Shown: positions 18,120 through 61,409 of the stretch, piece by piece
Layout of the letters: each line of letters begins with the position of its first letter
How positions within the stretch are numbered: position 1 is the first letter of the stretch
Assembly: GCA_002315595.1 (NCBI GenBank)
Contig: DCHG01000062.1
Coordinates: 4,076-68,075 of the forward strand
Direction: 5' to 3'
Origin: Clostridiales bacterium UBA1758
GTDB lineage: Bacteria > Bacillota > Clostridia > Oscillospirales > UBA1758
DNA length: 64,000 bases
The notes under the pieces: model-generated
The model's database searches: none
Seen by the model: only the letters and a program-made list of their open reading frames with translations
Told to the model about the DNA's origin: nothing
Translations under genes and position numbers: made by a program

Positions 18120-18123
18120 TAAT

Positions 18124-41678: not shown

Positions 41679-43148
41679 TTATGCGTTTTTGCCGAACACG
41701 CAAAAATCAACCACACCGATAGAAATTCCGTCCGCCCATTCAAGGATTCGTAGACGAACATATCGGGCAACCTTTGCCGGGAAGGAACGGTACGCGATAT
41801 TTTCTTCGATGTTATTGTCGCTTTGATCAAGAAGAATCTCCCAAGGACCGTCGATCGAATCGGCACATTCAATGACATATTTTGTCGGTGCCGGGACGAT
41901 TCCTGCGTCGTAATCAAGACCGACATCCCGCCAAATTACACGAGACGCCCCGCAACAACGGCTTCCTTGCAGATCGACCGTATAAGTCGGCATTTTATCA
42001 TCAGGTGCCGGTTGCCACCATGTCAGCATACTTTCATCGACGGCGTAAAGCGGGTTGCGTCCGTCGATAAAACTCGTCGCACGCAATGCTTTTCGGTTTC
42101 GGTAAAACAGCGGTGCAAGCCCGGTCGCGGTATTGCCGCGTTTTGCCTGTTCGGTTGCGGGCGCAAATCGAGGGGTGTCCGTGATCTCGGGGCAGAACAA
42201 AAGTCCGTTTTCGTCCATAAAGACCTGATCCATCCCGATTCTGCGCTCATAACAATGCTCATAGCAGACCGTTGTGGTATAAAATGTCCAAATCGTATCA
42301 TTCGGACCATCAACGACGCAACCATGTCCCGCACCAGAAACCAAACCTCTGTCATGCCGCGTCAGCGGATTGTTCGGCTGATATTGAAAGCCGGAAAGCG
42401 GGCTTTCGTCCGAATAATAGACGCCCTGCGCATATGCGCTAAATTCCGTACCGCAGCCGGAATAGATCAGATAATAACGACCGTTGCGTTTATACATCCA
42501 CTGACCTTCAATCCAGCCGAGTGAGTCGTCCTGATTGTGTTCACCGAAACATTCCCACCGGTGTTCAGGGTTGAATGCGTTGATTTCGATCGGATCGGTG
42601 GTGAAACGTCGCGGATCGTCCGGCGAAAGACGCACGCCGACAGTGCCGATGGTTGTGCCGACACCGTTCGGGCATTTGACATCACTGCACCAGTAAAGGT
42701 ACAATTCGCCGTCATCATCGCAGAACAGTGCCGGATCGGCAACCACAAGTGTCTTGCCATCCGGCGAAATAAATTCACCGAGCAACTCATACGGACCTTC
42801 CGGACGATCAGCGATGTAAAGCGGGCGATTTAATCCGCAAAGGAGAATTTTCCCCTTCCAAACACAGATCGCAGGACTGTAAAACACATCATGCAAAGTG
42901 CTACCGTCCGTCAGTTTGATATCAATATGTGTCCAATGAACAAAATCTTCCGTGACATAGGCAATCTCATAACTCGGAAAAAGATACCACTTACCCTCAT
43001 AATAAAGCACGCTCGGATCGGAAATCGAACGATAATCCGCAACGGGGATCCCGGTAAATCTCATTCCATTGGGGTAATCCACGCCACGCGGGCAATTTGG
43101 CATGGAGATCGGATTGCAATATGTATCAAATGAATGAATGTCCATCAT
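41679..43148 (-). CDS. Glycoside hydrolase family 43 protein with a C-terminal discoidin (F5/8 type C)-like domain; no signal peptide
   Basis: DPSVLYYEGKWYLFPS and repeated five-bladed-propeller-type segments. The C-terminal 130 aa ends in a galactose-binding-like pattern (ARYVRLRILEW). Confidence 0.75.
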   Translation of the reverse strand: MMDIHSFDTYCNPISMPNCPRGVDYPNGMRFTGIPVADYRSISDPSVLYYEGKWYLFPSYEIAYVTEDFVHWTHIDIKLTDGSTLHDVFYSPAICVWKGKILLCGLNRPLYIADRPEGPYELLGEFISPDGKTLVVADPALFCDDDGELYLYWCSDVKCPNGVGTTIGTVGVRLSPDDPRRFTTDPIEINAFNPEHRWECFGEHNQDDSLGWIEGQWMYKRNGRYYLIYSGCGTEFSAYAQGVYYSDESPLSGFQYQPNNPLTRHDRGLVSGAGHGCVVDGPNDTIWTFYTTTVCYEHCYERRIGMDQVFMDENGLLFCPEITDTPRFAPATEQAKRGNTATGLAPLFYRNRKALRATSFIDGRNPLYAVDESMLTWWQPAPDDKMPTYTVDLQGSRCCGASRVIWRDVGLDYDAGIVPAPTKYVIECADSIDGPWEILLDQSDNNIEENIAYRSFPAKVARYVRLRILEWADGISIGVVDFCVFGKNA

Positions 43149-43609
43149 ATCCTCCTGTTTTTTGTTTTCAAATCAGTATGTGTCAATTCCGTGATTTTGA
43201 TATGCGCATATCCGAATAAAACGGCGACCGCCACAAGGCTCCAATGGCGAAGCAGGGCTCCGCAAAGCAGGAATATGGCCGTCGGGATGACCGACAAAAC
43301 CATACCTTCGCGATAAGATTTCTTTTTTCCGTATCTTATCCATTCCAGATAATAAACAAAAAGTGCCACTGTATTGAAAAGAAAATAGACCTCTAATTCC
43401 GCCGCACTCGAAAATCCGAATTTCCACACAAAAACAGGCAGAAGCATCAAGCATATGCAACCGATCCTGCCGATCCATTCACAGATCGTCAGGTGTTTCG
43501 GCAACGTTACGGCCCCTGCGTTACGATTTTTCAACGAATAAACAAGATTTGGTATCAAAATCAGAAAAACGATCGCCGCATTAAAAAAGTTGATCCATCC
43601 GAATTTCAT
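43145..43609 (-). CDS. Small polytopic membrane protein, function unknown
   Basis: 4-5 predicted transmembrane segments. ATG at 43609 is preceded by GAGGG. The stop overlaps the GH43 start (ATGA). The track ORF extends to 43768. Confidence 0.5.
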   Translation of the reverse strand: MKFGWINFFNAAIVFLILIPNLVYSLKNRNAGAVTLPKHLTICEWIGRIGCICLMLLPVFVWKFGFSSAAELEVYFLFNTVALFVYYLEWIRYGKKKSYREGMVLSVIPTAIFLLCGALLRHWSLVAVAVLFGYAHIKITELTHTDLKTKNRRI

Positions 43610-43822
43610 CCGTTTGCCCTCGCTTGTCTGAAATATGTATGGTTCGCTCGTCAATAATTCTCTTGCTATACTCATTTTGCTCGATATTTCACGAAAACCA
43701 GCATTCGTTATTATTTTTTCGTTGTGTCGGATTGTTTTTTTCTTGCTTTCTATTTCAACATTACGCAAAGCGGATAATGTTTAGGTTCATGTGTTTCCAA
43801 GGAAATCAATCGATTGATAAAA

Positions 43823-45274
43823 TTACTTTTGGGAATGATAAAACACGGTTCGAATTTTAGAAAATACCTCTTTCACCAACCTGTCCTTTGCCAAAACCGC
43901 GCATACGAAATACACACTGCCTCCAATCAAAATTTGTAAAAATGTTGTTGACAATTTTGACGGAAGCGTCCTTGTAGCAAAAGCAATAACAAAGTACATA
44001 ATAACCGCTTGTACAGCATAATAAAGAGCCGTCCGTAGAATCCCCTCAAATTTAATCTGTTTTGTCATATAAACATATTGAATAACTGCACAAACACAAC
44101 TAGTTAAAATCGTCGCAAACGCCGCACCCATAAATCCATATTTCGGGATCAATACCGCATTTACCAATATGTTTAATATCATTGCACTAAACTGAGACAA
44201 CATCAGAATTTTGACTTGATTTGTAGCAGTAAAATATTGACTTCCGGAAACCCCCATCAAAGTATTTGTCAATAAAATCGGTGCCATAACCTTTATCGCT
44301 TGCACCGTTGGAATGAATTCATTTCCCAAATACCACGGAATGAATTTTTCTGAAATTGCAATCATTCCAAGCATCGCAGGAAAAGAAATAAATAACAAAC
44401 ACCTCGCAGATTTATTTAACAAACTCTGTATTTGTTCTTTATTCTCTCTTTTAAATTCATTTGCAATCCTAGGCATTATCGCATTATTAATCGCCAGAAT
44501 AAATGCCAACGGTATCGTGAGTATTTTTTCCGAGTAATCATAAAACGCAACTGCTTGAGAATTATCCGTCATCAATTCTATCATTATTTTATCACATTGC
44601 GTGTAAATAATCGTGCCTACCGAAGGGAGAAATAGCAATGCTGAATTGATTAAGTCCGTTTTAACATTGCTGAAATCCAAATGTGGCTTACGAACATATC
44701 TCTTAATTTGCGTAAATGAGATCGCATTTGCTAATGCTATCGATATCCCTTGAATAAATAAATATTTATCGATATCATTACTATCTTTAACAAATAGGAA
44801 AATGCTAACCACCGCGATTATTTTAGTCAGCATATTTTTCAATAATGCCCACTTCATATCCTCAACACCCACAAAAAGCCATGTCGGATCTATGAAATAG
44901 CCTATCATATAGGAATAATATATCAAAAACAGACTTCGATATTTTCCGATAGACATTGTAACTGCAAAGTATACAACCGAGCCGAAAATTGCAATTACCA
45001 CTCTTGACGACATTATTTGCCAAAAAACATTTGATATTGCATCCGGATCGTCCCGAACATACGCAATTTGTCTATTCCCATAGTTATAAATACCAAGTAT
45101 TACAATAGAGCAAATTAATGTTGTTGCCGAATTTACATAACCGTATATTCCTGTTCCAATCGGTCCCAATATGCGTGACAAGTAAGGCGCAGTAAAAAGC
45201 GGAATAAGCATCGAAACCATTTGGTATATCAAATTATATATATAGTTTTTGGTAATCTTTCCCATTTTGTTCAT
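43823..45274 (-). CDS. wzx: Oligosaccharide-unit flippase (Wzx, MOP superfamily)
   Basis: 12-14 TM protein with N-terminus NYIYNLIYQMVSMLIPLFTAPYLSRILGPIGTGIYGY, typical of polysaccharide flippases. Confidence 0.8.
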   Translation of the reverse strand: MNKMGKITKNYIYNLIYQMVSMLIPLFTAPYLSRILGPIGTGIYGYVNSATTLICSIVILGIYNYGNRQIAYVRDDPDAISNVFWQIMSSRVVIAIFGSVVYFAVTMSIGKYRSLFLIYYSYMIGYFIDPTWLFVGVEDMKWALLKNMLTKIIAVVSIFLFVKDSNDIDKYLFIQGISIALANAISFTQIKRYVRKPHLDFSNVKTDLINSALLFLPSVGTIIYTQCDKIMIELMTDNSQAVAFYDYSEKILTIPLAFILAINNAIMPRIANEFKRENKEQIQSLLNKSARCLLFISFPAMLGMIAISEKFIPWYLGNEFIPTVQAIKVMAPILLTNTLMGVSGSQYFTATNQVKILMLSQFSAMILNILVNAVLIPKYGFMGAAFATILTSCVCAVIQYVYMTKQIKFEGILRTALYYAVQAVIMYFVIAFATRTLPSKLSTTFLQILIGGSVYFVCAVLAKDRLVKEVFSKIRTVFYHSQK

Positions 45275-46248
45275 TTGTTTTTTTGTTTTTCATATTTTTT
45301 CTTTATCTTAAAATAACTGAGGGTTTTTTTTATTGAAATTCGATCTCGGTTTTGCATATACACCCTATAATAATATGCCAGTTTGTTTTTCTTGCCATAT
45401 TTTTTTACCAAATCGGAAGTTATTTCTCCATCGAATGACTTAATAACATCCGGATAGATCAAAAAACGGTCGAAAGAATCAACCCAAAGTTTCATCGGTC
45501 TGCAAAAAAAGTGAATATACAAATATTCCTCTTGGAACAAATCACTGCTTGCATTAATATAATAGCGAGATAGTTTTCCTTTTTCCCACAGAAATAAATT
45601 AAACTTATTTTTCCAGGCCTCGCATTTCTCTTTTCCCTGCAAGAAAAAACCGGCTTCGTATTTCTCCAGTCCGGCGTAAACAGTATCGGTAAATGAACGA
45701 AATTGGTATTTTTCATATATTTTTCGAATCAATTGAACATCTGTACAACAAATTTCGTCTGTTATAAAATCGTCATTGTACGATTCATCCTCTATTGCTA
45801 ATCTATACCGTAAATTAACTTCGGGATTATTTCTGTAAATCGTCGCATGACCCTGATTTCCGATTTTTTCATATTTCTGCAACATTTCACTTGTGTAGAA
45901 CCGTCTGATATTCCCCCACAATAAATCAATGTCGCAGTATCCCCAAAAATCAAAATCTTTTAGATACTCATGAAAAATATCACCGTACGCCACTTTATAG
46001 TCACACAATTTATAGGGTGTTTTTAGATTTATATGAAAATCGTACTTCCTCTGAATAAAGGACTGCATTTCTTTAAAAGACAGGTAAACAACTTTCACAT
46101 TTTCCGGGTACTCGTAGCAAGTATCATCATCAATAAACAAAATCCAATTAATTGTCGGGTTGTATTTGCATGAGTTTAACCACATTTGAAAATATGATGG
46201 TAAATGACCGAAATACAGAACAACAAAGCAAATACTGATTTCATTCAT
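45271..46248 (-). CDS. DUF6625-like protein (putative glycosyltransferase seen in capsule loci)
   Basis: VVLYFGHLPSYFQMWLNSCKYNPTINWILFIDD and FWGYCDIDLLWGNIRRF match what I remember of this family. The biochemical activity is not established. Confidence 0.5.
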   Translation of the reverse strand: MNEISICFVVLYFGHLPSYFQMWLNSCKYNPTINWILFIDDDTCYEYPENVKVVYLSFKEMQSFIQRKYDFHINLKTPYKLCDYKVAYGDIFHEYLKDFDFWGYCDIDLLWGNIRRFYTSEMLQKYEKIGNQGHATIYRNNPEVNLRYRLAIEDESYNDDFITDEICCTDVQLIRKIYEKYQFRSFTDTVYAGLEKYEAGFFLQGKEKCEAWKNKFNLFLWEKGKLSRYYINASSDLFQEEYLYIHFFCRPMKLWVDSFDRFLIYPDVIKSFDGEITSDLVKKYGKKNKLAYYYRVYMQNRDRISIKKTLSYFKIKKKYEKQKNK

Positions 46249-46250
46249 AA

Positions 46251-47510
46251 TTATTTCCCGCCCATTATTTCTTCAATCAACTGATTTTCATCACATTCTA
46301 AATAATGTTTCAAATATGTTTGTCCATATTTCCCACTGATTTCTACTTGAATTGTATTATTGGACCATTCAACATCATTTAGCACTTGTACCTTTGAAAT
46401 TACACTCTTTAACCAACAAAATCTAATTGTCATACATAAACGCTGTGCGAATGGCAACTCTGATTCTAACCAATGAAACACCCTGTTCGGCGTTGTCTGT
46501 TTAATGATATCAAAAAAGCATCTATCCACATAAGGTCTATTTGGTTTCATTCCATGACATATCGAGGAACTATGGACTCCGATTGGAAAGGATAATATCG
46601 GCATAGGAAAGAATGTCATAGGCGAATCATTATCCAATGCAATAACCCTGCATATCTCATTGTCGGCATTAAAATCCACAAAATAATTATTTTGTTTATG
46701 ATCTCTTTGAAAACAAATTGCATCAAAATAATTCAACCGATTCAACTCTTTTTGGAAAATCGGAGAAATGTGCTGTTTTTCCTCCAAAGACATATCTGTG
46801 GGACATATGCCATTGCACTCCTTTGTGACAATCCCAACCCTCTCAATGCCGTCATAGCATAATACCGCAAACCAGCAATTTGGAAACATATCATCTAATT
46901 CGAACAAATCTGCCAGTTTTTTTGTAGCGACGCTCATCATCGGGCGAAATATCTGATAGTGCCCTTGTTTGATAAAATTATTCAATTTAAATGAATATAT
47001 CTCGTTTCTGATGAATAAAACAAATTCAGTGCCAAAGTTTTCAAGAAATTCAACAACTTTTTCTTTCCCCTTTGAATAATCCTGAAACAGTCCCGGAAAT
47101 CCCACTTTCCCGAGATCCCATCCGCTATATCTTTTTCTTGTCGTTTCATAATGACTCTCAACATACGCATTCATCTTTTTAAGTTTTCTGATATTCTTCA
47201 GATTACTTAACTCGTTCTTAATTTGCAACTCTATTTCCTCTTTTTTTTCAAAGGAGTTAATATTTTCAAAATAATCTGTTATTACATCCTCAATATATAT
47301 TTGAAATTTACTATGAATTCGACATTCTTTAAAGTAAATGGTTGTTTCATCAACTACTGCGCGAATAATATTGTTTGAAGATGAAAAATAGGTGACATCT
47401 TCTCTCTTGCATTTATACACCGGAAGATCATCTTTGTCAATTTCCACTCGTTTTGATCCACTTCCGTATGTAACTTTTCGAATCAAATCAACTATTCGTT
47501 GCTTTATCAT
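46251..47510 (-). CDS. Hypothetical 419-aa protein with a PI3K/PI4K-like (atypical kinase) catalytic-loop pattern
   Basis: Clean ORF packed tightly between glycan genes. Residues 257-300 read NRLNYFDAICFQRDHKQNNYFVDFNADNEICRVIALDNDSPMTF. See the finding for details. Confidence 0.6.
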   Translation of the reverse strand: MIKQRIVDLIRKVTYGSGSKRVEIDKDDLPVYKCKREDVTYFSSSNNIIRAVVDETTIYFKECRIHSKFQIYIEDVITDYFENINSFEKKEEIELQIKNELSNLKNIRKLKKMNAYVESHYETTRKRYSGWDLGKVGFPGLFQDYSKGKEKVVEFLENFGTEFVLFIRNEIYSFKLNNFIKQGHYQIFRPMMSVATKKLADLFELDDMFPNCWFAVLCYDGIERVGIVTKECNGICPTDMSLEEKQHISPIFQKELNRLNYFDAICFQRDHKQNNYFVDFNADNEICRVIALDNDSPMTFFPMPILSFPIGVHSSSICHGMKPNRPYVDRCFFDIIKQTTPNRVFHWLESELPFAQRLCMTIRFCWLKSVISKVQVLNDVEWSNNTIQVEISGKYGQTYLKHYLECDENQLIEEIMGGK

Positions 47511-47532
47511 TGTCTAACAAAACCTCGTTATA

Positions 47533-48336
47533 TTACTTGATAACGCCTTGTCCTTTGATTATTCTGCGTATAATACGTTCAATATGTAAAATTTTCATTA
47601 CTGCTATTGTATGCTGTAATATAGTTACTCTTCTAAGATATTTTTTTATCCATAATTTATCTACACCATTTCTTAATGCGATTGCTTCGTGTTCTTTTAA
47701 TGTCACGGTTTTAAAATGCTTTGAACTCTCTCCGCCTTCACGAAATCCACTTAATATTTCGTCTACATAATAGAATTTCGCACCGGCAAAATACATTCTT
47801 GACAAAAGTTCATAATCCATTGCGCATCTATAGTCTAAAGAAAACATCCCATACTTTTCATATGCCTTTGACGAAACAAAGACAGACGGATGATTAAGAA
47901 GAAATGTGTATTCCATTTTAGACAGATCCGTATCCGGCTTTTTTATATATCCATCGGATAATATGTTGCGGAATTTAATCGTTTTTCCAAAAACAACATC
48001 AATATCAGTCTGGTTTTCAAAAATACGGCTGATGGTTTTCACGGCCCCGGGATATAGCACATCATCCGAATTGATTATTCCAATAACATCGCCTGTTGAC
48101 ATCAGTATTCCTTTATTAAATGCATCGCTGATTCCCTTATCGGGTTCGGAAACATATCGTGTAACAACTCCCGGATATTGCTTAATTATGTCCAATGTTG
48201 AATCGGTTGACCCTCCATCAATTATAACATACTCTAAATCAGGGGAATTTTCGGCTTTCACACTCTCTATCGTTTCTCGCAAAGTCTTTTCACTGTTATA
48301 AGTTACCGTTATTATCGACACCCGTAAATTCTTCAT
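47533..48336 (-). CDS. Glycosyltransferase family 2
   Basis: VSIITVTYNSEKTL...VIIDGGSTDSTLDII...EPDKGISDAFNKG. ATG at 48336 is preceded by AAGGAAAG. Confidence 0.85.
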   Translation of the reverse strand: MKNLRVSIITVTYNSEKTLRETIESVKAENSPDLEYVIIDGGSTDSTLDIIKQYPGVVTRYVSEPDKGISDAFNKGILMSTGDVIGIINSDDVLYPGAVKTISRIFENQTDIDVVFGKTIKFRNILSDGYIKKPDTDLSKMEYTFLLNHPSVFVSSKAYEKYGMFSLDYRCAMDYELLSRMYFAGAKFYYVDEILSGFREGGESSKHFKTVTLKEHEAIALRNGVDKLWIKKYLRRVTILQHTIAVMKILHIERIIRRIIKGQGVIK

Positions 48337-48355
48337 TACATCTTTCCTTCTGTGG

Positions 48356-49594
48356 TCAATCGATTGTTGCAATTCCTTGTTGACTGATAACTTTGGAGTC
48401 ATTCCCACTTACAATATAAACGACAACAAACAAGAAAAATCCCATGTTGAAATAATGCCCATATCTTAATAATCTCAACAGGAAATAACTAATACACATC
48501 AATTGAGTAATCTTGTTCGTTTTCAAATTGTCCGTTGTCCGATTTTTATAGATAAAATACACCATACCGGCAACGCCCAATATTCCCGTTTCAGATACAA
48601 TTCGCAAAAATAAAGAGTTTGCATCTTCCTGGTTTAATTGTAATTGAACAGAAGATATTTCAAATATTCCACTATATTTTTTATATGCGATCAAATGCGA
48701 TCCAAGACCGCCCCCCATTCCAAACGTCGATTTAAAGTTTTTTAAAGCCACTTTATAATTTATGAATAAGGTTTGGGTGCTTAAATTAGAGTAATCCTCA
48801 GTTTCTTCAAAAAGGAATAATCGAACTGTATCGTCCACTCTCATTTTGAAAATATCAACATAATTATATGCAACAATAAATAGTGCAATAAATAAAAGTA
48901 TAATGGATATTTGTTTAATTCCGTACTTATATTCCGATAGAATTAATATCAAAACAAACGCAATACCCACAAATCCCGATGATGAAAAAGTACAAATCAC
49001 TCCCATAAGAATAATAATCGCTTCAAAAGGATTAGAAATCATTATTTCGGATTCTTTATTATTGCCAATAAAATAGTAGATTGAAAAAAAGACTGCCGGC
49101 ATCAAAACCAGCGCGCATGCTGATGGCTCGGTGAAAATACCACTTGATCGGTAAAAATCAGTAGATCCTGCCTGGGATGGTACAAGCCATCTCATATCAT
49201 AAATAAAAGATACATTCATTTTGCGTGCAACTTGCTGTAACAATACAAATGCAGCAAGAACGCAAGAATAATCGGTATAAGTCTTTAGCACCGACAGATA
49301 ATTACCTTCGTCAATGATCGATGCATAAAAAATTAAATTCCCGAAAATTCCCAATATTTGCTTTAAAAGCAGAACCATTTCGTTGTTTTTTAAAATAACG
49401 CCAAGTATTCCGTGGATGAAAAAAACTGCAAAAAACAGTAAATATTTATTTGTTATTCTTATTGCTTTATAATTACACAAAAGAATAGAGAATTCGAGAA
49501 TCAAAATAACCTCAGGTGAAAAGACTCCCCCGAGAAAAATCAATAAAATCGCTATTTTTTGTTGCAACTTGGATAATGAAATTCTCATCGTCAT
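48356..49594 (-). CDS. wzy: Wzy-type polymerase / O-antigen-ligase-like membrane protein
   Basis: About 10-12 TM segments with a large loop late in the protein. It sits in a Wzx-containing locus. There is no strong sequence motif, as is typical for Wzy. Confidence 0.65.
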   Translation of the reverse strand: MTMRISLSKLQQKIAILLIFLGGVFSPEVILILEFSILLCNYKAIRITNKYLLFFAVFFIHGILGVILKNNEMVLLLKQILGIFGNLIFYASIIDEGNYLSVLKTYTDYSCVLAAFVLLQQVARKMNVSFIYDMRWLVPSQAGSTDFYRSSGIFTEPSACALVLMPAVFFSIYYFIGNNKESEIMISNPFEAIIILMGVICTFSSSGFVGIAFVLILILSEYKYGIKQISIILLFIALFIVAYNYVDIFKMRVDDTVRLFLFEETEDYSNLSTQTLFINYKVALKNFKSTFGMGGGLGSHLIAYKKYSGIFEISSVQLQLNQEDANSLFLRIVSETGILGVAGMVYFIYKNRTTDNLKTNKITQLMCISYFLLRLLRYGHYFNMGFFLFVVVYIVSGNDSKVISQQGIATID

Positions 49595-50778
49595 CCTCTT
49601 ATTTTTTCGTACAAATCTAAGTATTCCTTCACCATTCTGTTTTTCGAAAATTTCTGCGCATACGTCACAATATTTTCGGAATCAAGTTTAGAAACTTCTT
49701 TAAAGACGGTGCATACCGACGCCAAATCGTGAGACGGAATAATTCTACCCACTTCTTCGGAAATCAATTCCGGCAACGCAGTACTGTCATACACAATTGC
49801 CGGTGTCCCGCATGCCATTGCTTCCACTGTCGGAAGGCCAAACGTTTCCTCAACGCTGGTATTGAGAAATACATCCGCCGTTGAATAAAGCCCTGCGAGA
49901 TCATTTAGATTATCTATCCGTTCTACACTCAATATCTTCTTGGAAAGATGCTTTCTTTCCTTATTCCTTATTCCAACCAATACAACCCGACATTCATCAG
50001 GCAGTATTTCAGCCAATCTAATGAAATCATTCAATCCTTTTCTTTCGCTCCATGTACTTGCAACGCCAAGGATCATATATTTATCTTCAATATTATGTTG
50101 TTGTCTAAATCGGCTCTGTGTCGGCTTAAAATTCTGTAAATCAATGCCGTTGTAGATCGTTTTGCACGGAACTTTTTTCAAAAACGATTGCTTCACCTGA
50201 TTTTCAAGCCATTTTGATACACAAACCAAATGCAAATTGTCGACGGATGTAAATAATTCTTTTTTTCTTTGGTAATTCCATGATGAATTATCGAATATGA
50301 TACTCTTTGGATACGTTTTTTTCTGTGGACAATCATGGCAACCGTATTTCCATCTATCGCATCCAACCATATCATAATGGCAACAGTGTCCGGTAAATGC
50401 CCAACAATCGTGCAACGTCCAAACGATCGGTTTTCCGCTTTTTTTTAAATATTCAAATAAAATATCAACATTAATATAGTATCCGTGAAGATTATGCAAA
50501 TGAATAATATCCGGATCGTACAACTCGATTTGTCGAATCAATTTCCGCGTTGCCTCTTTTGAGAAAAAACCGGCCCTATCCGTTAATCTGGTACAAATAC
50601 CATCAATATAGACTCCCGAGGCATTTCCAATCTTATAATGGGAAATATCTTTATCAATCGTGTTGCGCGCAAAGGCAACCATCCCTTCATTTCCTTGATA
50701 TGAAAGAGATCTGCATAAATCTGTTGCAATACGCCCGGTACTCAAGTTACCAAAAATATTGATATGTAATATCCTCAA
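49591..50778 (-). CDS. Glycosyltransferase family 4
   Basis: The EX7E motif is present (VEETFGLPTVEAMACGTP). The N-terminus RILHINI is typical. TTG at 50778 is preceded by GAAGGG; the track starts at TTG 50799. Confidence 0.8.
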   Translation of the reverse strand: MRILHINIFGNLSTGRIATDLCRSLSYQGNEGMVAFARNTIDKDISHYKIGNASGVYIDGICTRLTDRAGFFSKEATRKLIRQIELYDPDIIHLHNLHGYYINVDILFEYLKKSGKPIVWTLHDCWAFTGHCCHYDMVGCDRWKYGCHDCPQKKTYPKSIIFDNSSWNYQRKKELFTSVDNLHLVCVSKWLENQVKQSFLKKVPCKTIYNGIDLQNFKPTQSRFRQQHNIEDKYMILGVASTWSERKGLNDFIRLAEILPDECRVVLVGIRNKERKHLSKKILSVERIDNLNDLAGLYSTADVFLNTSVEETFGLPTVEAMACGTPAIVYDSTALPELISEEVGRIIPSHDLASVCTVFKEVSKLDSENIVTYAQKFSKNRMVKEYLDLYEKIRG

Positions 50779-50843
50779 AAGAAACCCTTCTTTATTCAAA
50801 ACTCAATCCCGAAAAAACACTTTTCAAATTGATAATTTCCCAC

Positions 50844-51422
50844 TCATTTTTCCAGTTTCCTTATCACTCTCGCGGGGTTTCCGACGATCACGGAGCGATC
50901 CTCGTACTGTCCGGCGACGACGGCTCCGGCTCCGACAATGCAGCCCTCGCCCAGTACAGTTCCCTTCAAAATGATCGAATTGCACCCGATAAAGCAGTTT
51001 TTTCCGATTTTGATCTCCCTTGCGGGGATCAGATCGCTATTACCGCCCGTCGGATCGCACAACAATTCCACCCTTGTTTCCGCATCAAGCGGATGAAAAT
51101 CATTATCGAGAATTTTCACATTTCCCCCGATCGATGTATTATCGCCGATCTCGATCTTTTTTCTGGCATAGATCGTCGCCCCGGAAATTCCGACATGATC
51201 TCCGATGACGATCTCGGCACCGGGCGCACGGGTGACAATAATCGTGCGGCTATATAGCCCCACCAAATTCGACAAAAACGAACTTTTGATCGTTACGCCT
51301 TCACCGATCGAAAGATTTGCGCCTTTTTTATTATAAATCAGCGGCAAGCCCTTCAAAAGAAGTCTCTTTCCGTATTTGATTTTTTGAACTTTCAGCGCAA
51401 TTTTAAACCAGTTGCAATTCAT
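50844..51422 (-). CDS. Hexapeptide-repeat O-acetyltransferase (WcaF/maltose acetyltransferase-like)
   Basis: Left-handed beta-helix repeats (IGDHVGISGATIYA, IGDNTSIGGNVKIL, IGKNCFIGCNSII, VGAGAVV). ATGA overlap with the upstream gene. Confidence 0.8.
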   Translation of the reverse strand: MNCNWFKIALKVQKIKYGKRLLLKGLPLIYNKKGANLSIGEGVTIKSSFLSNLVGLYSRTIIVTRAPGAEIVIGDHVGISGATIYARKKIEIGDNTSIGGNVKILDNDFHPLDAETRVELLCDPTGGNSDLIPAREIKIGKNCFIGCNSIILKGTVLGEGCIVGAGAVVAGQYEDRSVIVGNPARVIRKLEK

Positions 51423-52645
51423 AATTTCGAAATTTCATCCTTATATTTGGAAATACTGCATTCCTTGGACAGATTTTTTTCGACATAATCTCTGCTGTTG
51501 ATTTGAGTCGGTTTATTCTCAATAGCATGACGAAGCATTGCTTCAATTGCGGGATAGTCCCCCGGATCACACACTTCACCGCAACCGATTTCTTCGATCA
51601 AAGTCCTGATCTCGGTCCCCTGCTCCAACACGCCGAGGATCGGTTTATTGATTGCCGCAATCCCGTAAAACTTGCTTGGACAACTCACGCCCTTGATGCC
51701 CTTTGCATTGACGCACCAATGAATGTCGCCGGAATTCAACGAAGCGTTCAGATCCGCCTTATCCTGATACGGGATAAAGACGACATTGGCAAGATCTTTG
51801 TCTTCCTTGTTTTTTTTCAGCGTTTCCAATTTCGCACCTGCTCCGACAAAGGCAAAGACGACATCCGTTCGATCACGAAATGTTTCGATAACTTTCATAA
51901 TGTTTTCAAGGTCATAATACAGTCCGATATTGCCGGAATACATCACAACATATTTTCCCGCAAGACCGTATTTTTCTTTGAATTGAAGCACCTCCGGCGC
52001 GTCCTGCGACAAAGGGTAGATCATTTTTTCGTCGATCCAGTTATTGATCATCACGGTTTTCGGGCATTTTTTGCCGACAAAACGGTTTTTGACCGTTTCA
52101 ACAAGATCCCGTCCGACGGTGATGATCAGATCGGATCTGCCGCAAGAGAAAATATCGAGTTTTTTCATCACCCAAACGACGAAACGATTGGATGAGTAAT
52201 TCACGGCACAGATCTGTTCCGGGTTAAAATCCTGAATACAGTACACGAGTTTTGCGCGTTTCATCCATTTACCGATGACGCCCAAAAGCCCACCGAGGAT
52301 CGGCGGCTGAGAAATGGTAAAAACGGCATCCTGACCGCCCGCCTTTTTGCAGGCAGCGATCGCCCGAAAAAAATAGGCAAGAATATTCTTGATCCTGCTG
52401 ATCTTGTTTTCTTTTGAAAACTCCGGAACGCGAACACGGATGATGCGCACACCATTGATCTGCTCAAAATAGTACTTTTTATTCCGATATGCTTCTTCGA
52501 TCGTGCCGGAATAGGACGGTACAGTGCAAATCACGGTGATTTCGAACCGATCGGTCATTCCTTCCGCCAGGTCCTGCAAAATCTGACCGGTCGATGCGAC
52601 ATCGGGGTAATAATAATGGGCGAACATCAAAAGTTTTTTCTTCAT
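51419..52645 (-). CDS. Glycosyltransferase family 4 (WbuB/WcaI-like)
   Basis: MKKKLLMFAHYYYPDVASTGQILQDLAEG is a typical WbuB/WcaI-type N-terminus. ATG at 52645 is the likely start; the in-frame GTG at 52714 and ATG at 52660 are alternatives. Confidence 0.8.
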   Translation of the reverse strand: MKKKLLMFAHYYYPDVASTGQILQDLAEGMTDRFEITVICTVPSYSGTIEEAYRNKKYYFEQINGVRIIRVRVPEFSKENKISRIKNILAYFFRAIAACKKAGGQDAVFTISQPPILGGLLGVIGKWMKRAKLVYCIQDFNPEQICAVNYSSNRFVVWVMKKLDIFSCGRSDLIITVGRDLVETVKNRFVGKKCPKTVMINNWIDEKMIYPLSQDAPEVLQFKEKYGLAGKYVVMYSGNIGLYYDLENIMKVIETFRDRTDVVFAFVGAGAKLETLKKNKEDKDLANVVFIPYQDKADLNASLNSGDIHWCVNAKGIKGVSCPSKFYGIAAINKPILGVLEQGTEIRTLIEEIGCGEVCDPGDYPAIEAMLRHAIENKPTQINSRDYVEKNLSKECSISKYKDEISKL

Positions 52646-52648
52646 TTT

Positions 52649-52658
52649 CCCCCCCCCC
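52649..52658 (-). repeat. Homopolymeric G10 tract (C10 on the plus strand) 3 nt upstream of the GT4 start codon
   Basis: The plus strand reads ttcattttCCCCCCCCCCat. The coding strand reads ATGGGGGGGGGGAAAATGAAG. Confidence 0.95.
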
Positions 52659-52730
52659 ATTATTCGTGCAAAATTCGTCGGTTTTGATTGCGTTCTTTCG
52701 AATTTACCATACACCGACTTCTATTATAAT

Positions 52731-52890: not shown

Positions 52891-55863
52891 ATGACAAAAT
52901 CCATCACCGCATTAACCTCATTGTTCCTACAAACCTCGCTTCAGGATTCCGAGGCTGATTACCGACGTTCCGTCACAAATGCTGGCTTTCCGCACTGGGA
53001 CGCCGTTGTCATCACCGCCTCCAATCGGTTGCAGGCAGAGGGCTATATGCTCCAAATCGAATCACGCAGAAGCCGTCTTCCGCAGAATACGGCTTTTCTC
53101 GTCATTCCCGATGAAGGCGACAAACGCGTCGGCTCCGCCGGATCAACGCTTTCCGTCATTCGGGAACTGAAATCGCGTTTCGGCGACCTTTCCGATAAAA
53201 GATTTCTTGTGATTCACGCAGGCGGAAACTCATCACGCTGTCCGCAATATTCTGCGCTCGGCAAACTTTTTGCGCCTCTTCCCACGATGCTCGGCGACAA
53301 GCCTGCCACACTGTTCGATATGTTTCTTGTCACGATGGCGTCCGTTCCCGGCAGGATGAAAAACGGAATGTTGCTGCTTTCGGGCGATGTCACACTGCTT
53401 TTTAATCCTCTAATGTGCGATTTCGGTGATGCCTCCGCCGCCGTCATTTCGTTTACGGAAGATGTCGAAACCGGCAAGGATCACGGCGTATATGTGAAAA
53501 ACCCCGTCACGGGTAATGTGAAAAGTTTTCTGCACAAGCAACCCGTTGAGGTGTTGCGCGATCGCGGAGCCGTCGACCGTCGCAATCTCTGTTCCATCGA
53601 CACGGGTGCCATTTGGCTCTGTCCCGAAATTCTCGACCGTCTTTTCTCACTTGTCGACACCGACGTAAAATATCATTCCGTCGTCAACGACACCGTCCGT
53701 CTGTCGCTTTATTCCGACATCGCCTATTGCCTTGCCGAGGATAGCACGCTTGCGCGGTTTCAAAACGAAACGCCCGAGGGCAGTTTCTGCCCCGAATTGA
53801 CTGCGGTACGCGAAAAGTTATGGAACGTCATCGGCTCGTATAATATGAAACTGATGAACCTTGCACCGGCGAAATTCGTTCATTTCGGATCCATTCCCGA
53901 AATTCTCGATCTTGTCAACACCGGCGTGGAAGAATACACTTTCATCGGTTGGGAAAAACAAATTGGTTCTTCTCTCGGAAACGCTTCAAATCCGGCATAC
54001 AATTCTGTGCTGAACGACGGTGCCATCATCGGCGACGGCAGTTTTTTGGAGGTTTCCTATGTCCGTTCCGGCGCAGTGATCGGCAAAAATTCGTATGTTT
54101 CGTTTGTTGATCTTCATCGTGGCGATCGGATCCCGGACAATGTTCTCGTTCACGGTTTGCGACACTCTAACGGGAAATTCACCTGCCGGATCATGAACGT
54201 CACAGATAATCCAAAGAGTAATTATCTCTTTGGTATTCAACTATCTGTAATCGGAAATAAACTAGGTGCAAAACTTTCCGAAACGCTTTGGGACGCAATG
54301 CTCTATCCCGAATGTGACAGTATCGACGAGGCAGTTCAGGCGAGTTTGAACCTCTACGATCTCGTTGTGAACGACTCCGGCGATCTGGATCAATGGCAAA
54401 GCGCGACAAAAAAATCGCTTTGTTCCGGTTTCAATGATGCCGATCCGAAAGCGATCATCGATTGGAACCAGCGCATGGAAGAACTCGTTCAAATGGATGA
54501 ATTCGCAAATGCCATTCGATCGGGAATTCCCGCAAGCACGATCAAACCATCCTCTGCAAAACTTTCAGAAATTCAAAAAAAGTGGGTTGCGGATCAGTTT
54601 AAGGATCTTGATCCGACTGATCTTTCGGATTTTTCCTATGCGATCCGCCTTCACTATTATCTTGGTACTGTGTTCGGCGAAGAGGAGTTTACCGCGTCCT
54701 GCTATCAACTGATCGCCCAAACAGTGCTTCATTCGACACTTGCCGGTCTGAACTACCGCGACCAATTGAAGATCGCATCCGACGAAGTCGTCGTCCGTCT
54801 TCCGCTTCGCGTCAACTGGGGCGGCGGTTGGACGGACACCTGTCCCCATTGTTTGGAACACGGCGGCATCGTTTTGAATGCCGCGATCGCGATCGACGGC
54901 AAATATCCCGTTGAAGTTCGGCTCGTCAAAATCCCGGAACACAAAATTGTATTTGACAGCCGTGATATGGATGTCCACGGCGAATTCACCGATATTGCAC
55001 CGTTGCAGGAAACCGGGAACCCCTTTGATCCGTTTTCATTGCAAAAAGCCTGCCTGCTCGCCTGCGGAATTATCCCGAAGACAGGCGGCAACCTCGACGC
55101 TATCCTGACACGCCTCGGCGGAGGCTTTGTCATGCACTCCGAGGTCAAAAATGTCCCGAAAGGCTCCGGTCTCGGTACATCTTCCATTCTTTCGGCTGCC
55201 GCGGTCAAGGCGATGTTGCGCTTTGTGGGCGCGCCATTCACGGAAGAAACGCTTTATTCCACCGTGCTTGCGATGGAACAAATCATGTCCACCGGGGGCG
55301 GATGGCAGGATCAGGTGGGCGGATTGATTCCGGGCATCAAACTCGTTTCGTCCTCACGCGGTATCGACCAGCGGCTGAACGTCGAGCATATCCACCTTTC
55401 CGATGCGACAAAATCGGAATTAAATGAGCGTTTTGCGATTATTTACACCGGTCAGCGTCGTTTGGCGCGAAACCTTTTGCGCGATGTTCTCGGTCGGTAT
55501 ATCGGTAACGAGCCGGACAGTCTGTACGCACATCGTGAGATCCAAAAAATAGCAAATTCCATGCGTCTTGCGCTGGAAAACGGCAATGTGGACGAATTTG
55601 CGAGACTTTTGGATCAACACTGGTCATTGTCCAAAAAAATAGACTCCGGCAGTAGCAATTCGCTGATCGAACAGATCTTCATCGCAATTGACGATTTGAT
55701 CGACGCAAGAATGTGTTGCGGTGCCGGTGGAGGCGGTTTTTTGCAAGTCGTGCTGAAAAAGGGCGTGACCAAAGGCGATGTGCATCATCGCTTGAAGGAT
55801 GTGTTCCTCGATTTCGCCGTTGATGTTTGGGAAAGCGCGATCGTGTACGAGATCAATGCGTAA
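52891..55863 (+). CDS. fkp: Bifunctional L-fucokinase / L-fucose-1-phosphate guanylyltransferase
   Basis: 990 aa. The N-terminal half resembles the fucokinase-family nucleotidyltransferase region (VVITASNRLQAEGY, GSAGSTL). The C-terminal half is a GHMP kinase (PKGSGLGTSSILSAAAV, CGAGGGGF). Length and architecture match Bacteroides Fkp as I remember it. Confidence 0.85.
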   Translation: MTKSITALTSLFLQTSLQDSEADYRRSVTNAGFPHWDAVVITASNRLQAEGYMLQIESRRSRLPQNTAFLVIPDEGDKRVGSAGSTLSVIRELKSRFGDLSDKRFLVIHAGGNSSRCPQYSALGKLFAPLPTMLGDKPATLFDMFLVTMASVPGRMKNGMLLLSGDVTLLFNPLMCDFGDASAAVISFTEDVETGKDHGVYVKNPVTGNVKSFLHKQPVEVLRDRGAVDRRNLCSIDTGAIWLCPEILDRLFSLVDTDVKYHSVVNDTVRLSLYSDIAYCLAEDSTLARFQNETPEGSFCPELTAVREKLWNVIGSYNMKLMNLAPAKFVHFGSIPEILDLVNTGVEEYTFIGWEKQIGSSLGNASNPAYNSVLNDGAIIGDGSFLEVSYVRSGAVIGKNSYVSFVDLHRGDRIPDNVLVHGLRHSNGKFTCRIMNVTDNPKSNYLFGIQLSVIGNKLGAKLSETLWDAMLYPECDSIDEAVQASLNLYDLVVNDSGDLDQWQSATKKSLCSGFNDADPKAIIDWNQRMEELVQMDEFANAIRSGIPASTIKPSSAKLSEIQKKWVADQFKDLDPTDLSDFSYAIRLHYYLGTVFGEEEFTASCYQLIAQTVLHSTLAGLNYRDQLKIASDEVVVRLPLRVNWGGGWTDTCPHCLEHGGIVLNAAIAIDGKYPVEVRLVKIPEHKIVFDSRDMDVHGEFTDIAPLQETGNPFDPFSLQKACLLACGIIPKTGGNLDAILTRLGGGFVMHSEVKNVPKGSGLGTSSILSAAAVKAMLRFVGAPFTEETLYSTVLAMEQIMSTGGGWQDQVGGLIPGIKLVSSSRGIDQRLNVEHIHLSDATKSELNERFAIIYTGQRRLARNLLRDVLGRYIGNEPDSLYAHREIQKIANSMRLALENGNVDEFARLLDQHWSLSKKIDSGSSNSLIEQIFIAIDDLIDARMCCGAGGGGFLQVVLKKGVTKGDVHHRLKDVFLDFAVDVWESAIVYEINA

Positions 55864-55932: not shown

Positions 55933-56006
55933 CGGATATTTTCACTCTGCTCCGCACGACGGAAATAGGAATCGTCCACAGATGGAATATGGAAAATTTC
56001 GGCACA

Positions 56007-56888
56007 TCAATCACAATTTCCTTCGGCTCTGTTTTCTTCTTTGGAAACGATTTCACGAACTTCATCCAAAGATTTCCAATCGGCGGTATGTTTTTTCATT
56101 ACTATTTTGTGTCGAATTCTAACAACAAATTTAGGGAAACAGGAACGAATATGATAAAGTTTTCCCAGTGATTCTTTTGTCGTTTCGTATTTTTTCTTTG
56201 AGATTAGGTTATATTTATATAAAATCTTATTGTCTTCCAAGGCTACCAAAACTCCATTATTGGTTCCTATTCCATCACAGTCAAAAATCGACACGATTTG
56301 ACTAATTGATTGATATTGTACCCCCCCGGAAAATGCTTTTACGAAGAAACCAAAATCAGCGGCCAACCCTTCTTGTAACGAAAAAGGGTTGTTTTTTAGA
56401 TATTTGCTTCGAGTAATAACGGATTGGTGGCAAAACTCCATTTCTCCCAAAAATGACAATTTACTCGGATCCTTAGACCTGTAAACCCGATACTTATTTT
56501 GATACTTAAAAACCACATCGCCGTATATTATATCCGCGTTATTTTTATCTGCTCTCTCAAATACAAGCATCGAATATTCATCAAAAAAAATATCACCTGC
56601 ATTCAAATAAAGACACCATTCGCCGGTTGCAAGAGCCGCGCCTTTATTCATTGCGTCGTATATTCCCTTGTCCGATTCACTGTAAAAACGGATCAGTAAT
56701 CCCAATTTCTCCGCTTTCTCAATATATTCTTTCATTGCTTCTGCCGTTCCGTCCGTTGACGCCCCGTCAACTATCACCATTTCAATCGTACTCATATCAA
56801 TTTTCTGATACATAACGGATTCAACAGTTTTCAATAAATCTTTTTTCGCGTTTTTGCATATCGTGATGATCGAATATTCAGGCTTCAT
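56007..56888 (-). CDS. Glycosyltransferase family 2
   Basis: YSIITICKNAKKDL...VIVDGASTDGTAEAM...ESDKGIYDAMNKG. It is a paralogue of the GT2 at 47533..48336. ATG at 56888 is preceded by GGGAGGG. Confidence 0.85.
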   Translation of the reverse strand: MKPEYSIITICKNAKKDLLKTVESVMYQKIDMSTIEMVIVDGASTDGTAEAMKEYIEKAEKLGLLIRFYSESDKGIYDAMNKGAALATGEWCLYLNAGDIFFDEYSMLVFERADKNNADIIYGDVVFKYQNKYRVYRSKDPSKLSFLGEMEFCHQSVITRSKYLKNNPFSLQEGLAADFGFFVKAFSGGVQYQSISQIVSIFDCDGIGTNNGVLVALEDNKILYKYNLISKKKYETTKESLGKLYHIRSCFPKFVVRIRHKIVMKKHTADWKSLDEVREIVSKEENRAEGNCD

Positions 56889-56898
56889 AGCATTCCCT
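56832..56898. repeat. Direct repeat copy A (ribosome-binding site plus first ~15 codons of the GT2 gene)
   Basis: Near-identical to 58005..58070. The shared core is ttttcgcgtttttgcatatcgtgatgatcgaatattcaggcttcatagcattccct. Confidence 0.9.
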
Positions 56899-56918
56899 CC
56901 CAGCATAAAGTGATCCTC

Positions 56919-58031
56919 TCACCAATAACATCCATTTTCAACCTGTTTATAATTTTGGGGCGGAGTTTCGATTGGGCGAATCCAATTTTCATTGATAAAC
57001 TTCTTATATAAAAGATCGGAAGTGAGCAGAAATTCTCCATAAACTCCAAAAAAAGCCGGCAACCGTCCGCAAGGTTCAATTGCTATTTTACCCATTTTCT
57101 TGATCTCACACCCCAAAGGAAATCCGTATGCTCCTGCTCCAATAAGTGCAATATCAAAATCTATTTTCCGAATATCATCGATCATTTTCCTCAACACCTG
57201 AAAAAAATTGGTAAATCCTTCCGGTCGTTCGCCCACCTGAGTTGTATAAGTCTTGTATGTAATCAACTCAAAATCCGGCAACTCACATTCAGGCGAATAT
57301 GCCCATTCCGATTTGCGTTCATATTGTAATCTAATTGAATCCGTAAATGAATTTGCAACCAACACTTTTTTCCCTTTTAATGCACCAATCCATGTATCCC
57401 GAATCGGTTTATCACAATACGGCCCAAATTCAAAATATTGCTTTTTTCTATCATCAACCATTTTAACATGGCGAAGAAAATGACCATATGAAAACAACTG
57501 ATATTTAAACGGCGGAAAACTAACTGGCATATAATCGCATTCGGAATAACAAGAAATTAACAGTTCGGAAAACTCATCTACCGCTTGATCGATTTCTTTA
57601 TAGTCATCAGAAAAAAAGCCCGAAGTTTGATATAACCACTCAATCCAGCAAGTTTTGTACCTTTTTGTCACCTTGGCTCGTTTTTTACAATATGAATTTA
57701 CAATTGCCGCTTCAGTATTTCCCATCCTCCCCAGGAAAGTTGGTGTGCCATCCAATATCCTGTTTTTAATTTCATCAGTTTCTAAAATATCAATAGTTTT
57801 ATAACCTAAACCTTTTAATATTTGAAAATATGTCGTATCGCAATCGTGCTTTATCAGTGTTAGAAATGCACGAACTATATTGATTATAAAATAATCAATA
57901 CTATCTCTAATCGTAAATTTATACACTATATTTTCCTCTTTTGAAACAAGAATTTCACTTACTTTTTTATCTTTTACTCTTTTGAATGCACATCCATAAT
58001 TTTCCAATAAATCATTTTCGCGTTTTTGCAT
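56919..58031 (-). CDS. Hypothetical protein, possibly a GT-D-fold (DUF1792-like) glycosyltransferase
   Basis: 370-aa ORF. FLGRMGNTEAAIV and DIALIGAGAYGFPLGCEIKKMGKIAIEPCG loosely resemble GT-D family motifs. The ATG at 58031 has no ribosome-binding site; the GTG at 57926 is preceded by AAGAGGAAA. Confidence 0.5.
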   Translation of the reverse strand: MQKRENDLLENYGCAFKRVKDKKVSEILVSKEENIVYKFTIRDSIDYFIINIVRAFLTLIKHDCDTTYFQILKGLGYKTIDILETDEIKNRILDGTPTFLGRMGNTEAAIVNSYCKKRAKVTKRYKTCWIEWLYQTSGFFSDDYKEIDQAVDEFSELLISCYSECDYMPVSFPPFKYQLFSYGHFLRHVKMVDDRKKQYFEFGPYCDKPIRDTWIGALKGKKVLVANSFTDSIRLQYERKSEWAYSPECELPDFELITYKTYTTQVGERPEGFTNFFQVLRKMIDDIRKIDFDIALIGAGAYGFPLGCEIKKMGKIAIEPCGRLPAFFGVYGEFLLTSDLLYKKFINENWIRPIETPPQNYKQVENGCYW

Positions 58032-58070
58032 ATCGTGATGATCGAATATTCAGGCTTCATAGCATTCCCT
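58005..58070. repeat. Direct repeat copy B, in front of the 370-aa orphan gene
   Basis: Same core as copy A, with one substitution plus a 1-nt deletion in the A-run. This leaves a 28-codon remnant ORF (58060..57974, MKPEYSIITICKNAKMIYWKIMDVHSKE). Confidence 0.9.
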
Positions 58071-58145
58071 TCCGCTACATTTCATTGCATTTTTATCAAA
58101 ATATCATCAATTCACGTAATTGAAAAATAGTCTATACCGAGTCAT

Positions 58146-59270: not shown

Positions 59271-59287
59271 ATTTCCAGCCCCAGCAT

Positions 59288-61377: not shown

Positions 61378-61409
61378 AACCATCCTCCGAATATTGTGAC
61401 AAATGTTCT

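Follow-up and report, generated by a model that had tools for sequence, protein, structure and literature searches.

What does an unnamed gene contribute to the glycan operon in which it lies? The question is raised by a stretch of 64,000 nucleotides from Clostridiales bacterium UBA1758 (assembly GCA_002315595.1, contig DCHG01000062.1, positions 4,076 to 68,075), the whole of which was analysed and is called the window here. A reading made from the letters of this DNA, without database searches (the sequence-only reading), had proposed that a 419-amino-acid protein encoded within the operon carries a catalytic loop resembling that of type II phosphatidylinositol 4-kinases (PI4KII). The open reading frame (ORF) was found where that reading had placed it, running for 419 codons from an ATG start to a stop on the minus strand, with genes for a family 2 glycosyltransferase (GT2) and a Wzy-like protein upstream and genes for a DUF6625 protein and a Wzx-type protein downstream.

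46251 to 47510, minus strand: gene for the predicted kinase-fold protein (419 amino acids, 49.4 kDa, pI 6.35)

The structural models indicate that this protein almost certainly adopts the kinase fold of the protein-kinase-like (PKL) superfamily, and it is probably an active phosphotransferase. Whether its acceptor is a glycan or a lipid-linked glycan, as the fold and the gene context suggest, we regard as an evenly balanced question. For the full model, a cytoplasmic glycan-tailoring kinase that transfers phosphate from ATP to a repeat unit linked to undecaprenyl diphosphate, we estimate a probability of about 0.5. The model is built on the gene itself, the fold of its modelled product, the invariance of the catalytic residues and residence only in operonic Wzx/Wzy cassettes; from these we infer the use of ATP, what each residue does and, above all, which substrate is used.

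Searches with the single 419-amino-acid protein produced a noise match only in Pfam (C8, E 0.15) and none against NCBIfam models or PDB sequences. No glycosyltransferase, transporter or sugar-nucleotide domain was detected in these three libraries, in agreement with the sequence-only reading, which had recognised no such motif. That reading had also called the protein an orphan, and here it was mistaken. A word-indexed search of 5.8 billion clusters recovered only 7 relatives (35-54% identity, all without a name or a Pfam domain), and an exhaustive HMMER search with the alignment of those relatives retrieved 937 cluster representatives at E≤1e-3, 229 of them at E≤1e-30. Family members are nearly all about 400 amino acids long, and the family size of about 900 refers to representatives after clustering at 50%, most of which come from metagenomes of human gut and rumen. 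No Pfam family was found among 10 sampled members, and 100 members gave scattered noise only. A large protein collection searched with a 137-sequence alignment yielded no name, and cluster look-up returned only 'hypothetical protein'. In the literature searched, on DUF6625, on capsule kinases resembling PI4K and on atypical kinases of bacteria, no earlier description of the family was found; the expectation that a family of this kind would be new in capsule loci of Gram-positive type therefore holds for the libraries and literature searched. The family is sizeable and was previously unannotated. A scan of genome contigs added one relative only, in a Clostridia metagenome-assembled genome (MAG). 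The full-length window protein was absent from a collection of 15 billion proteins; a 228-amino-acid fragment (P0011) on a 949-bp contig of a JGI metagenome is 100% identical to its C-terminal half.

Structures were predicted with AlphaFold2 from two alignments. With 8 sequences the model reached a predicted local distance difference test (pLDDT) score of 75 and a predicted template modelling (pTM) score of 0.73, and with 137 sequences these values were 96.1 and 0.93. When the models were compared with the PDB using Foldseek, the best 10 matches of the first and the best 6 of the second were all type II phosphatidylinositol (PI) 4-kinases, alpha or beta (E 9e-5 to 5e-3, probability 0.99-1.0; root-mean-square deviation 4.9 Å over 240 columns for 4hne_B). 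These were followed by Ron13, MSMEG_1954/Rv3197 (UbiB-like), PI4KIIIbeta, CotH, HipA, COQ8A, CtkA, PI3K and MAP kinases, which likewise have a kinase fold. A confident non-kinase placement had been named beforehand as evidence against a kinase; both models led to the kinase fold and had type II PI4K as their best match, and no competing non-kinase fold appeared in the Foldseek PDB results of either. The order of secondary-structure elements assigned to the model by DSSP is the canonical one for kinases: a helix, the catalytic loop, two strands and D-N-D.

Resemblance to PI4KII was also recovered without the use of any structure. With hmmsearch, the family profile matched PI4KIIbeta best among all PDB sequences (E 0.021), and its segment LnllDvicyqkDHrpnNYnvv aligned gap-free to the PI4KIIbeta catalytic loop, with A-[FLY]-D-N-D downstream. 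This match reproduces the ungapped alignment from which a PI4KII-like catalytic loop had first been proposed. In the window protein residues 257-300 read NRLNYFDAICFQRDHKQNNYFVDFNADNEICRVIALDNDSPMTF and correspond to bases 46611-46742, exactly as first described, with D270/H271/N274/N275 and D293/N294/D295 present at their numbered positions.

Conservation was counted in alignments of 137-144 members with 22-54% identity to the query and a mean column identity of 26%. Just three of the 419 columns are invariant, namely D263, D270 and D293, the predicted active-site aspartates. That the only invariant residues are the three Asp predicted for the active site places the resemblance far beyond chance. 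Around them H271 (97%), N275 (99%) and Y276 (94%) are kept, as are N294 (99%), D295 (89%, with Asn in 9%) and F300 (94%). Family-wide retention of D270/H271/N275 and D293/N294/D295 is the opposite of the loss that would have spoken against the sequence-only reading. Elsewhere R363 (99%), Y399 (96%), G226 and G234 (both about 95%) and the N324-R325-P326 segment (76-85%) stand out, position 45 is Ser or Thr in 80% of the family and position 46 is Asn in 64%. At position 61 a basic residue is present in 132 of 144 members (92%; Arg in 110, Lys in 22), with Lys in the window protein and its close subfamily, and F60 before it is kept in 92%. One detail of the earlier proposal was not borne out: the putative ATP-lysine strand IYSFKLNNF (residues 171-179) is helical in the model (helix 150-176), and its K175 is variable (among 144 members 38 Arg, 31 Lys, 16 Asn and others). 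The helix and the variability rule K175 out as the ATP lysine, and K61 is the better candidate.

On the model, the gene divides into the following parts.

47325 to 47420, minus strand: N-lobe beta-sheet, residues 31-62 (strands 31-34, 39-43, 47-53 and 56-62 by DSSP of the model)
47328 to 47330, minus strand: K61, motif YF[K/R]EC, at the end of strand 56-62, candidate ATP-phosphate-binding basic residue
46905 to 47306, minus strand: family-specific helical insertion, residues 69-202, between N-lobe strands
46821 to 46877, minus strand: strands 212-219 and 222-230, completing the N-lobe sheet, then a hinge-like Gly segment
46683 to 46736, minus strand: catalytic segment L259-Y276, with helix 250-266 carrying D263, then Q268-R-D270-H271-K-Q-N-N275-Y276 (D-x4-N)
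46611 to 46640, minus strand: A291-L-D293-N294-D295-S-P-M-T-F300, predicted metal-binding segment equivalent to the kinase Asp-Phe-Gly (DFG) motif, right after strand 286-291
46533 to 46625, minus strand: activation-segment-like loop, residues 296-326, holding FFPMPILSFPIGV and N324-R325-P326
46266 to 46523, minus strand: C-lobe helical bundle, residues 330-415, with R363, W382, E390, T398 and Y399 conserved, candidate substrate-binding residues

In the N-lobe, a turn formed by S44-S45-N46-N47 appears to occupy the place of the kinase G-loop. The insertion that follows is made of helices 69-84, 90-100, 104-119, 139-146, 150-176 and 188-202. Strands 276-280 and 286-291 link the D270-x4-N275 loop to D293-N-D, beyond which FFPMPILSFPIGV (residues 300-312) forms the hydrophobic maximum of the whole protein (hydropathy peak 300-318). 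Candidates for the binding of sugar or diphosphate are R363, R325, Y399, W382, E390 and D329. Neither a transmembrane segment nor a signal peptide was detected in the 419-amino-acid protein, whose 19-residue hydropathy peak is only 1.19, and it is soluble and cytoplasmic. Its 13 Cys are scattered, forming no cluster and no CCPCC motif.

The closest comparison is with PI4KIIalpha/beta (PDB 4PLA, 4HND/4HNE, 4WTV, 9HHM), the best structural match with both models and the best PDB profile match. Common to both are an ungapped h-h-D-h-h-x4-D-x4-N-h-h-h pattern, where h is hydrophobic, in which another Asp precedes the catalytic one by 7 residues; an h-D-N farther downstream with which the activation loop opens; a hydrophobic activation segment; and a large N-lobe insertion after beta3, which in the window protein forms a helical domain unlike that of PI4KII and about 130 amino acids long. 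In PI4KIIalpha the G-loop spans residues 130-136, the catalytic loop extends over 308-315, and 344-364 form the activation loop; the activation loop dips into the membrane and lines the pocket for the lipid headgroup, PI, and a K152A mutant is inactive (PMC3974213). K61 may be equivalent to this K152, judging from the model. In contrast to PI4KII, the window protein lacks the CCPCC palmitoylation insertion and the RK-rich insertion (PMC3974213), and its DFG-equivalent is D-N-D rather than D-N-G. Membership of the PI3_PI4_kinase family (PF00454) was not supported: there was no hidden Markov model (HMM) match at E≤10 for the window protein and none at E≤1 in 100 relatives, template modelling (TM) scores were 0.2-0.4, and the CCPCC insertion is missing. 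On these results the protein is not placed in this family or among the type II PI4Ks proper; on the models, what it shares with PI4KII is the kinase core and not the overall architecture. Phosphatidylinositol is an unlikely substrate, given the bacterial organism and the polysaccharide-operon setting. A search seeded with the PI4KIIbeta fragment, meant to supply full-length PI4KII sequences for an hhalign comparison, recovered only exon fragments of 50-70 amino acids.

Parallels in function lie elsewhere. WaaP and WaaY are core heptose kinases of lipopolysaccharide (LPS) and KdkA is a kinase of 3-deoxy-D-manno-octulosonic acid (Kdo), all cytoplasmic kinase-fold enzymes encoded in glycan loci that phosphorylate a sugar on a lipid-linked glycan. 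Together with WbdD, the terminator of the O9a O-antigen and a precedent for a glycan kinase with a kinase fold (PMC3482155), they are the most plausible functional parallels to the window protein. These are Gram-negative LPS enzymes, with WbdD in an ABC-transporter pathway, whereas the present family occupies Wzx/Wzy cassettes; the window protein gave no Kdo, WaaY or Pkinase matches in Pfam or NCBIfam, and 100 relatives gave none in Pfam. The eukaryotic glycan kinases Fam20B, a xylose kinase, and POMK are further functional parallels, but they act in the lumen of the secretory pathway, unlike the cytoplasmic window protein; they were not among the significant fold matches and no sequence similarity to them was detected. 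HipA, CtkA and CotH belong to the same structural neighbourhood, with a D-x-H-x-K-N-like or D-x4-N catalytic loop and weaker fold matches (E 0.04-0.5), but they are protein kinases of toxin-antitoxin or spore-coat contexts rather than of a glycan operon, and neither the window protein nor 100 relatives matched HipA_C or CotH in Pfam. The same sequences gave no match to the aminoglycoside phosphotransferase (APH) and choline-kinase HMMs PF01636 and PF01633, and kinases of these types were also absent from the leading fold matches. By sequence the protein belongs to none of these glycan kinase families, and it fails PF00454; it is best filed as a new family inside the PKL superfamily, in a new setting, the Wzx/Wzy capsule cassettes of gut Clostridia-type bacteria.

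This setting is seen first in the window, where the gene lies in a tightly packed minus-strand glycan operon between a WcaE-like GT2 (22 bp away, upstream) and DUF6625 (2 bp away, downstream).

47533 to 52714, minus strand: upstream operon block, from GT2 to the WcaI-family GT4
51419 to 52714, minus strand: WcaI-family GT4
50844 to 51422, minus strand: hexapeptide O-acetyltransferase
49591 to 50799, minus strand: WcaC-like GT4
48356 to 49594, minus strand: Wzy-like polymerase
47533 to 48408, minus strand: WcaE-like GT2, adjoining the kinase-like gene upstream
45271 to 46248, minus strand: DUF6625 gene (Pfam E 2.7e-85), 2 bp 3' of the kinase-like gene
43823 to 45274, minus strand: Wzx-type flippase (Polysacc_synt and MurJ Pfam matches), with a 4-bp overlap with DUF6625

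More GT2 genes, a UDP-galactopyranose mutase, an epimerase, an NTP_transf_5 protein and a plus-strand Fkp-type gene are close by. GC content is 32-38% from wzx to GT4 against 50-53% in the backbone, which is typical of an exchangeable, serotype-specific region, and the kinase-like gene sits in this low-GC variable part with the glycosyltransferases, Wzy and Wzx, the regulatory genes being elsewhere.

Across the family, gene context was examined in 50 loci: that of the window, 16 retrieved through protein identity, one in a Clostridia MAG and 32 from metagenomes, chiefly of human gut and rumen. When the kinase-like proteins are grouped at 70% identity, these loci fall into 28 groups. All loci long enough to judge are polysaccharide cassettes with GT4 or GT2 glycosyltransferases, Wzy, Wzx and acyl- or acetyltransferases (28 of 28 groups), so that homologues do reside in glycan loci, a point that had been raised from the window alone. 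Loci L001 and L013 additionally contain CpsB, Wzz, a CpsD-like ATPase, a priming transferase and LytR. Of 51 immediate neighbours, 50 share the strand of the kinase-like gene, and the median gap is 10 bp. Recurrence of neighbours was counted in two ways, by single-linkage clustering and by strict BLAST to the window protein.

WcaI-family GT4: 18 of 28 groups by clustering, 14 of 28 by strict BLAST
WbbJ/WcaF-like hexapeptide acetyltransferase: 17 of 28 by clustering, 9 of 28 by strict BLAST
WcaC-like GT4: 11 of 28 by clustering, 11 of 28 by strict BLAST
WecB/FnlC-type 2-epimerase: 10 of 28 by clustering
FnlA: 8 of 28 by clustering
FnlB/WbcJ-type reductase: 6 of 28 by clustering
DUF6625: 7 of 28 by clustering, 7 of 28 by strict BLAST
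NTP_transf_5: 6 of 28 by strict BLAST, window included

Across the family, the neighbours that recur most are the two GT4s and the acetyltransferase, and a loose theme of 6-deoxy-L-hexose chemistry (L-fucose or L-N-acetylfucosamine type) with O-acetylation runs through the loci. Lacking a universal partner, the kinase-like gene has the behaviour of a modular tailoring gene passing from cassette to cassette.

DUF6625 is the constant partner in the close subfamily (≥35% identity; L001-L011) and is missing from most distant loci, L013-L016 among them. Within the subfamily the two proteins diverge together, with identities for DUF6625 and the kinase-like protein of 66/54, 64/54, 54/39, 53/41 and 53/35%. 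An obligate pairing as a family-wide rule was rejected, because DUF6625 occurs in only 7 of 28 groups. One distant locus, L018, also has DUF6625, at 46% identity. The DUF6625 protein carries a DxD-like CDIDLLWGN motif; it gave no PDB match by single sequence or profile, and no mention of it was found in the literature searched. In L014 (7870-9989) and L015 (6664-8791) an unannotated gene pair (373 and about 333 amino acids; no Pfam match) lies just 5' of the kinase-like gene, and by HMM the protein of about 333 residues is not DUF6625. In L017 (395-2692) a 765-amino-acid protein, P0008, consists of a GT4 fused to a full-length kinase-like domain, through either a true fusion or a lost stop codon; as it comes from one 2.8-kb contig only, it is not strong Rosetta-stone evidence. 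Besides the window, NTP_transf_5 genes were seen in L014 (13912-15102), L034, L038/L042, L044 and L046, and could represent a second tailoring function in cassettes with the kinase-like gene.

The mechanism that we propose would begin with ATP-Mg bound between the lobes and held by K61 (Arg in most relatives), N275 and D293. With D270 acting as the catalytic base, the gamma-phosphate would pass to a sugar hydroxyl of a repeat unit carried on undecaprenyl diphosphate, at the inner face of the membrane and ahead of flipping by Wzx. The hydrophobic loop FFPMPILSFPIGV after D-N-D may help to engage the lipid-linked substrate: it lies at the activation-loop position, as does the membrane-dipping loop of PI4KIIalpha, and by this analogy a lipid-linked acceptor would be favoured. 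An extension of the same idea, which we consider rather doubtful, is that the protein is the founding member of a group of bacterial PI4KII-like kinases that work at the membrane interface and phosphorylate the polyprenyl-diphosphate-linked oligosaccharides of gut Clostridia capsules.

Several observations weigh against the glycan-kinase model. Sequence likeness to PI4KII is confined to the catalytic loop, and comparison with PI4KII yields low TM-scores (0.2-0.4) and an identity of 10-14%. Among PDB sequences, no kinase was matched by sub-profiles covering the N-lobe (residues 28-90) or the DND/activation region (276-335), so that the putative equivalences of D293 with D346 and of K61 with K152 of PI4KIIalpha rest on fold and topology only. 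Arg at position 61, found in 76% of the family, is unusual for a canonical kinase and allows for an atypical handling of the nucleotide. With no neighbour gene shared by all 28 groups, the context does not pinpoint the substrate; no downstream enzyme able to use a phosphorylated glycan was identified in the loci. The evidence on the family consists here of sequences, models and gene context.

Since many bacterial PKL-fold enzymes are small-molecule kinases, the protein might instead phosphorylate a precursor, either a free sugar (at the anomeric position, as NahK or AmgK) or an alcohol (choline, as LicA), to be passed to a nucleotidyltransferase and then to a transferase. NTP_transf_5 in the window's locus and in 5 other locus groups fits such a route, and in the close subfamily the transferase step could fall to DUF6625. 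However, linkage to a nucleotidyltransferase is not consistent (NTP_transf_5 occurs in just 6 of the 28 groups), Pfam matches to APH, choline kinase and fructosamine kinase are absent from the window protein and 100 relatives, and the best-matching structures are those of kinases acting on lipid headgroups rather than of APH or choline kinases; we consider a precursor kinase unlikely. An atypical protein Ser/Thr (or Tyr) kinase of the HipA/CtkA kind, regulating the capsule assembly machinery or a glycosyltransferase, seems very improbable. The gene belongs to a low-GC biosynthetic cassette and not to the neighbourhood of CpsB/C/D regulators, it shifts among very different cassettes as a tailoring gene would, and neither a HipB-like or substrate partner nor a HipA_C or Pkinase Pfam match was found.

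The fold could also serve a different chemistry, such as AMPylation or other nucleotidyl transfer, as in SelO, or the transfer of a phospho-substituent from a nucleotide-activated donor to a glycan. Kinase-fold enzymes with non-kinase chemistry exist (SelO, SidJ), the Arg at the beta3 position in 76% of members hints at atypical nucleotide handling, and D295 makes the motif D-N-D, against the single Asp of DFG. Yet D-x4-N with a downstream Asp is the set of residues canonical for phosphotransfer and can be aligned with PI4KII, an authentic kinase, and positive evidence for another chemistry is lacking; we judge it quite improbable. The resemblance would mean least if the protein were an inert pseudokinase or scaffold, or if the motif had arisen by chance in a non-kinase fold. 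The lack of Pfam and NCBIfam matches and the low TM-scores point that way, but three predicted catalytic Asp as the only invariant columns across 137-144 divergent sequences are rare in pseudokinases, the model with pLDDT 96 retrieves kinases almost exclusively, and a separate sequence profile matches PI4KIIbeta, so we give this explanation hardly any credence.

If the extended reading, of PI4KII-like kinases acting at the membrane interface, is true, the family would represent a class of glycan-tailoring enzymes new to Wzx/Wzy pathways and might be a prokaryotic relation of the type II PI 4-kinases of eukaryotes. To our knowledge, no dedicated glycan kinase is known for the Wzx/Wzy capsule pathways of Gram-positive-type bacteria. 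Phosphate substituents alter capsule charge, antigenicity and recognition by phages or the immune system, and the prediction of capsule chemistry from sequence would be improved. The kinase fold with its intact catalytic residues turns a 'hypothetical' family of about 900 representatives into a directly testable enzyme, which would also provide a bacterial comparator for the atypical catalytic core of type II PI4K.

Other features of the window concern the glycan locus and its surroundings. Low-GC (32-38%) blocks of glycan genes extend over 43800-50800 and 56000-60300 in a backbone of 50-53%, and between them lie a backbone-like acetyltransferase, a WcaI-like GT4 and Fkp at 45-51% GC. Two low-GC blocks split by backbone-like genes suggest a mosaic, horizontally exchanged serotype region. 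The Fkp-type gene, in the middle of the glycan locus (52891-55863, plus strand), encodes a 990-amino-acid bifunctional fucokinase/fucose-1-phosphate guanylyltransferase (NCBIfam PRK13412, E 1e-115), implying GDP-L-fucose salvage and a fucose-containing polymer. The NTP_transf_5 gene of the window (PF14907, 'uncharacterised nucleotidyltransferase') is at 60298-61383, minus strand. Directly 3' of wzx, a 207-amino-acid ORF (43145-43768, minus strand) matches no family, and at the edge of the locus (41679-43148, minus strand) is a glycoside hydrolase of family GH43 with an F5/8 type C (discoidin) domain. A second MurJ/Wzx-type flippase (549 amino acids; 16518-18167, minus strand) is distant from the glycan locus and adjoins amidohydrolase and radical SAM genes.

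A 370-amino-acid protein (56919-58031, minus strand) is encoded between a GT2 and the UDP-galactopyranose mutase. It has a sub-threshold match resembling the GT-D fold (E 2e-4) and no NCBIfam match, and its position makes it a candidate unusual, perhaps galactofuranosyl, transferase. Finally, the GT2 ORF adjoining the kinase-like gene (47533-48408, minus strand), as listed, has a GTG start and a 53-bp overlap with the end of the Wzy-like gene; its GT2 domain starts only at residue 31, indicating that the true start is probably the internal Met of MKNLRVSIITV.

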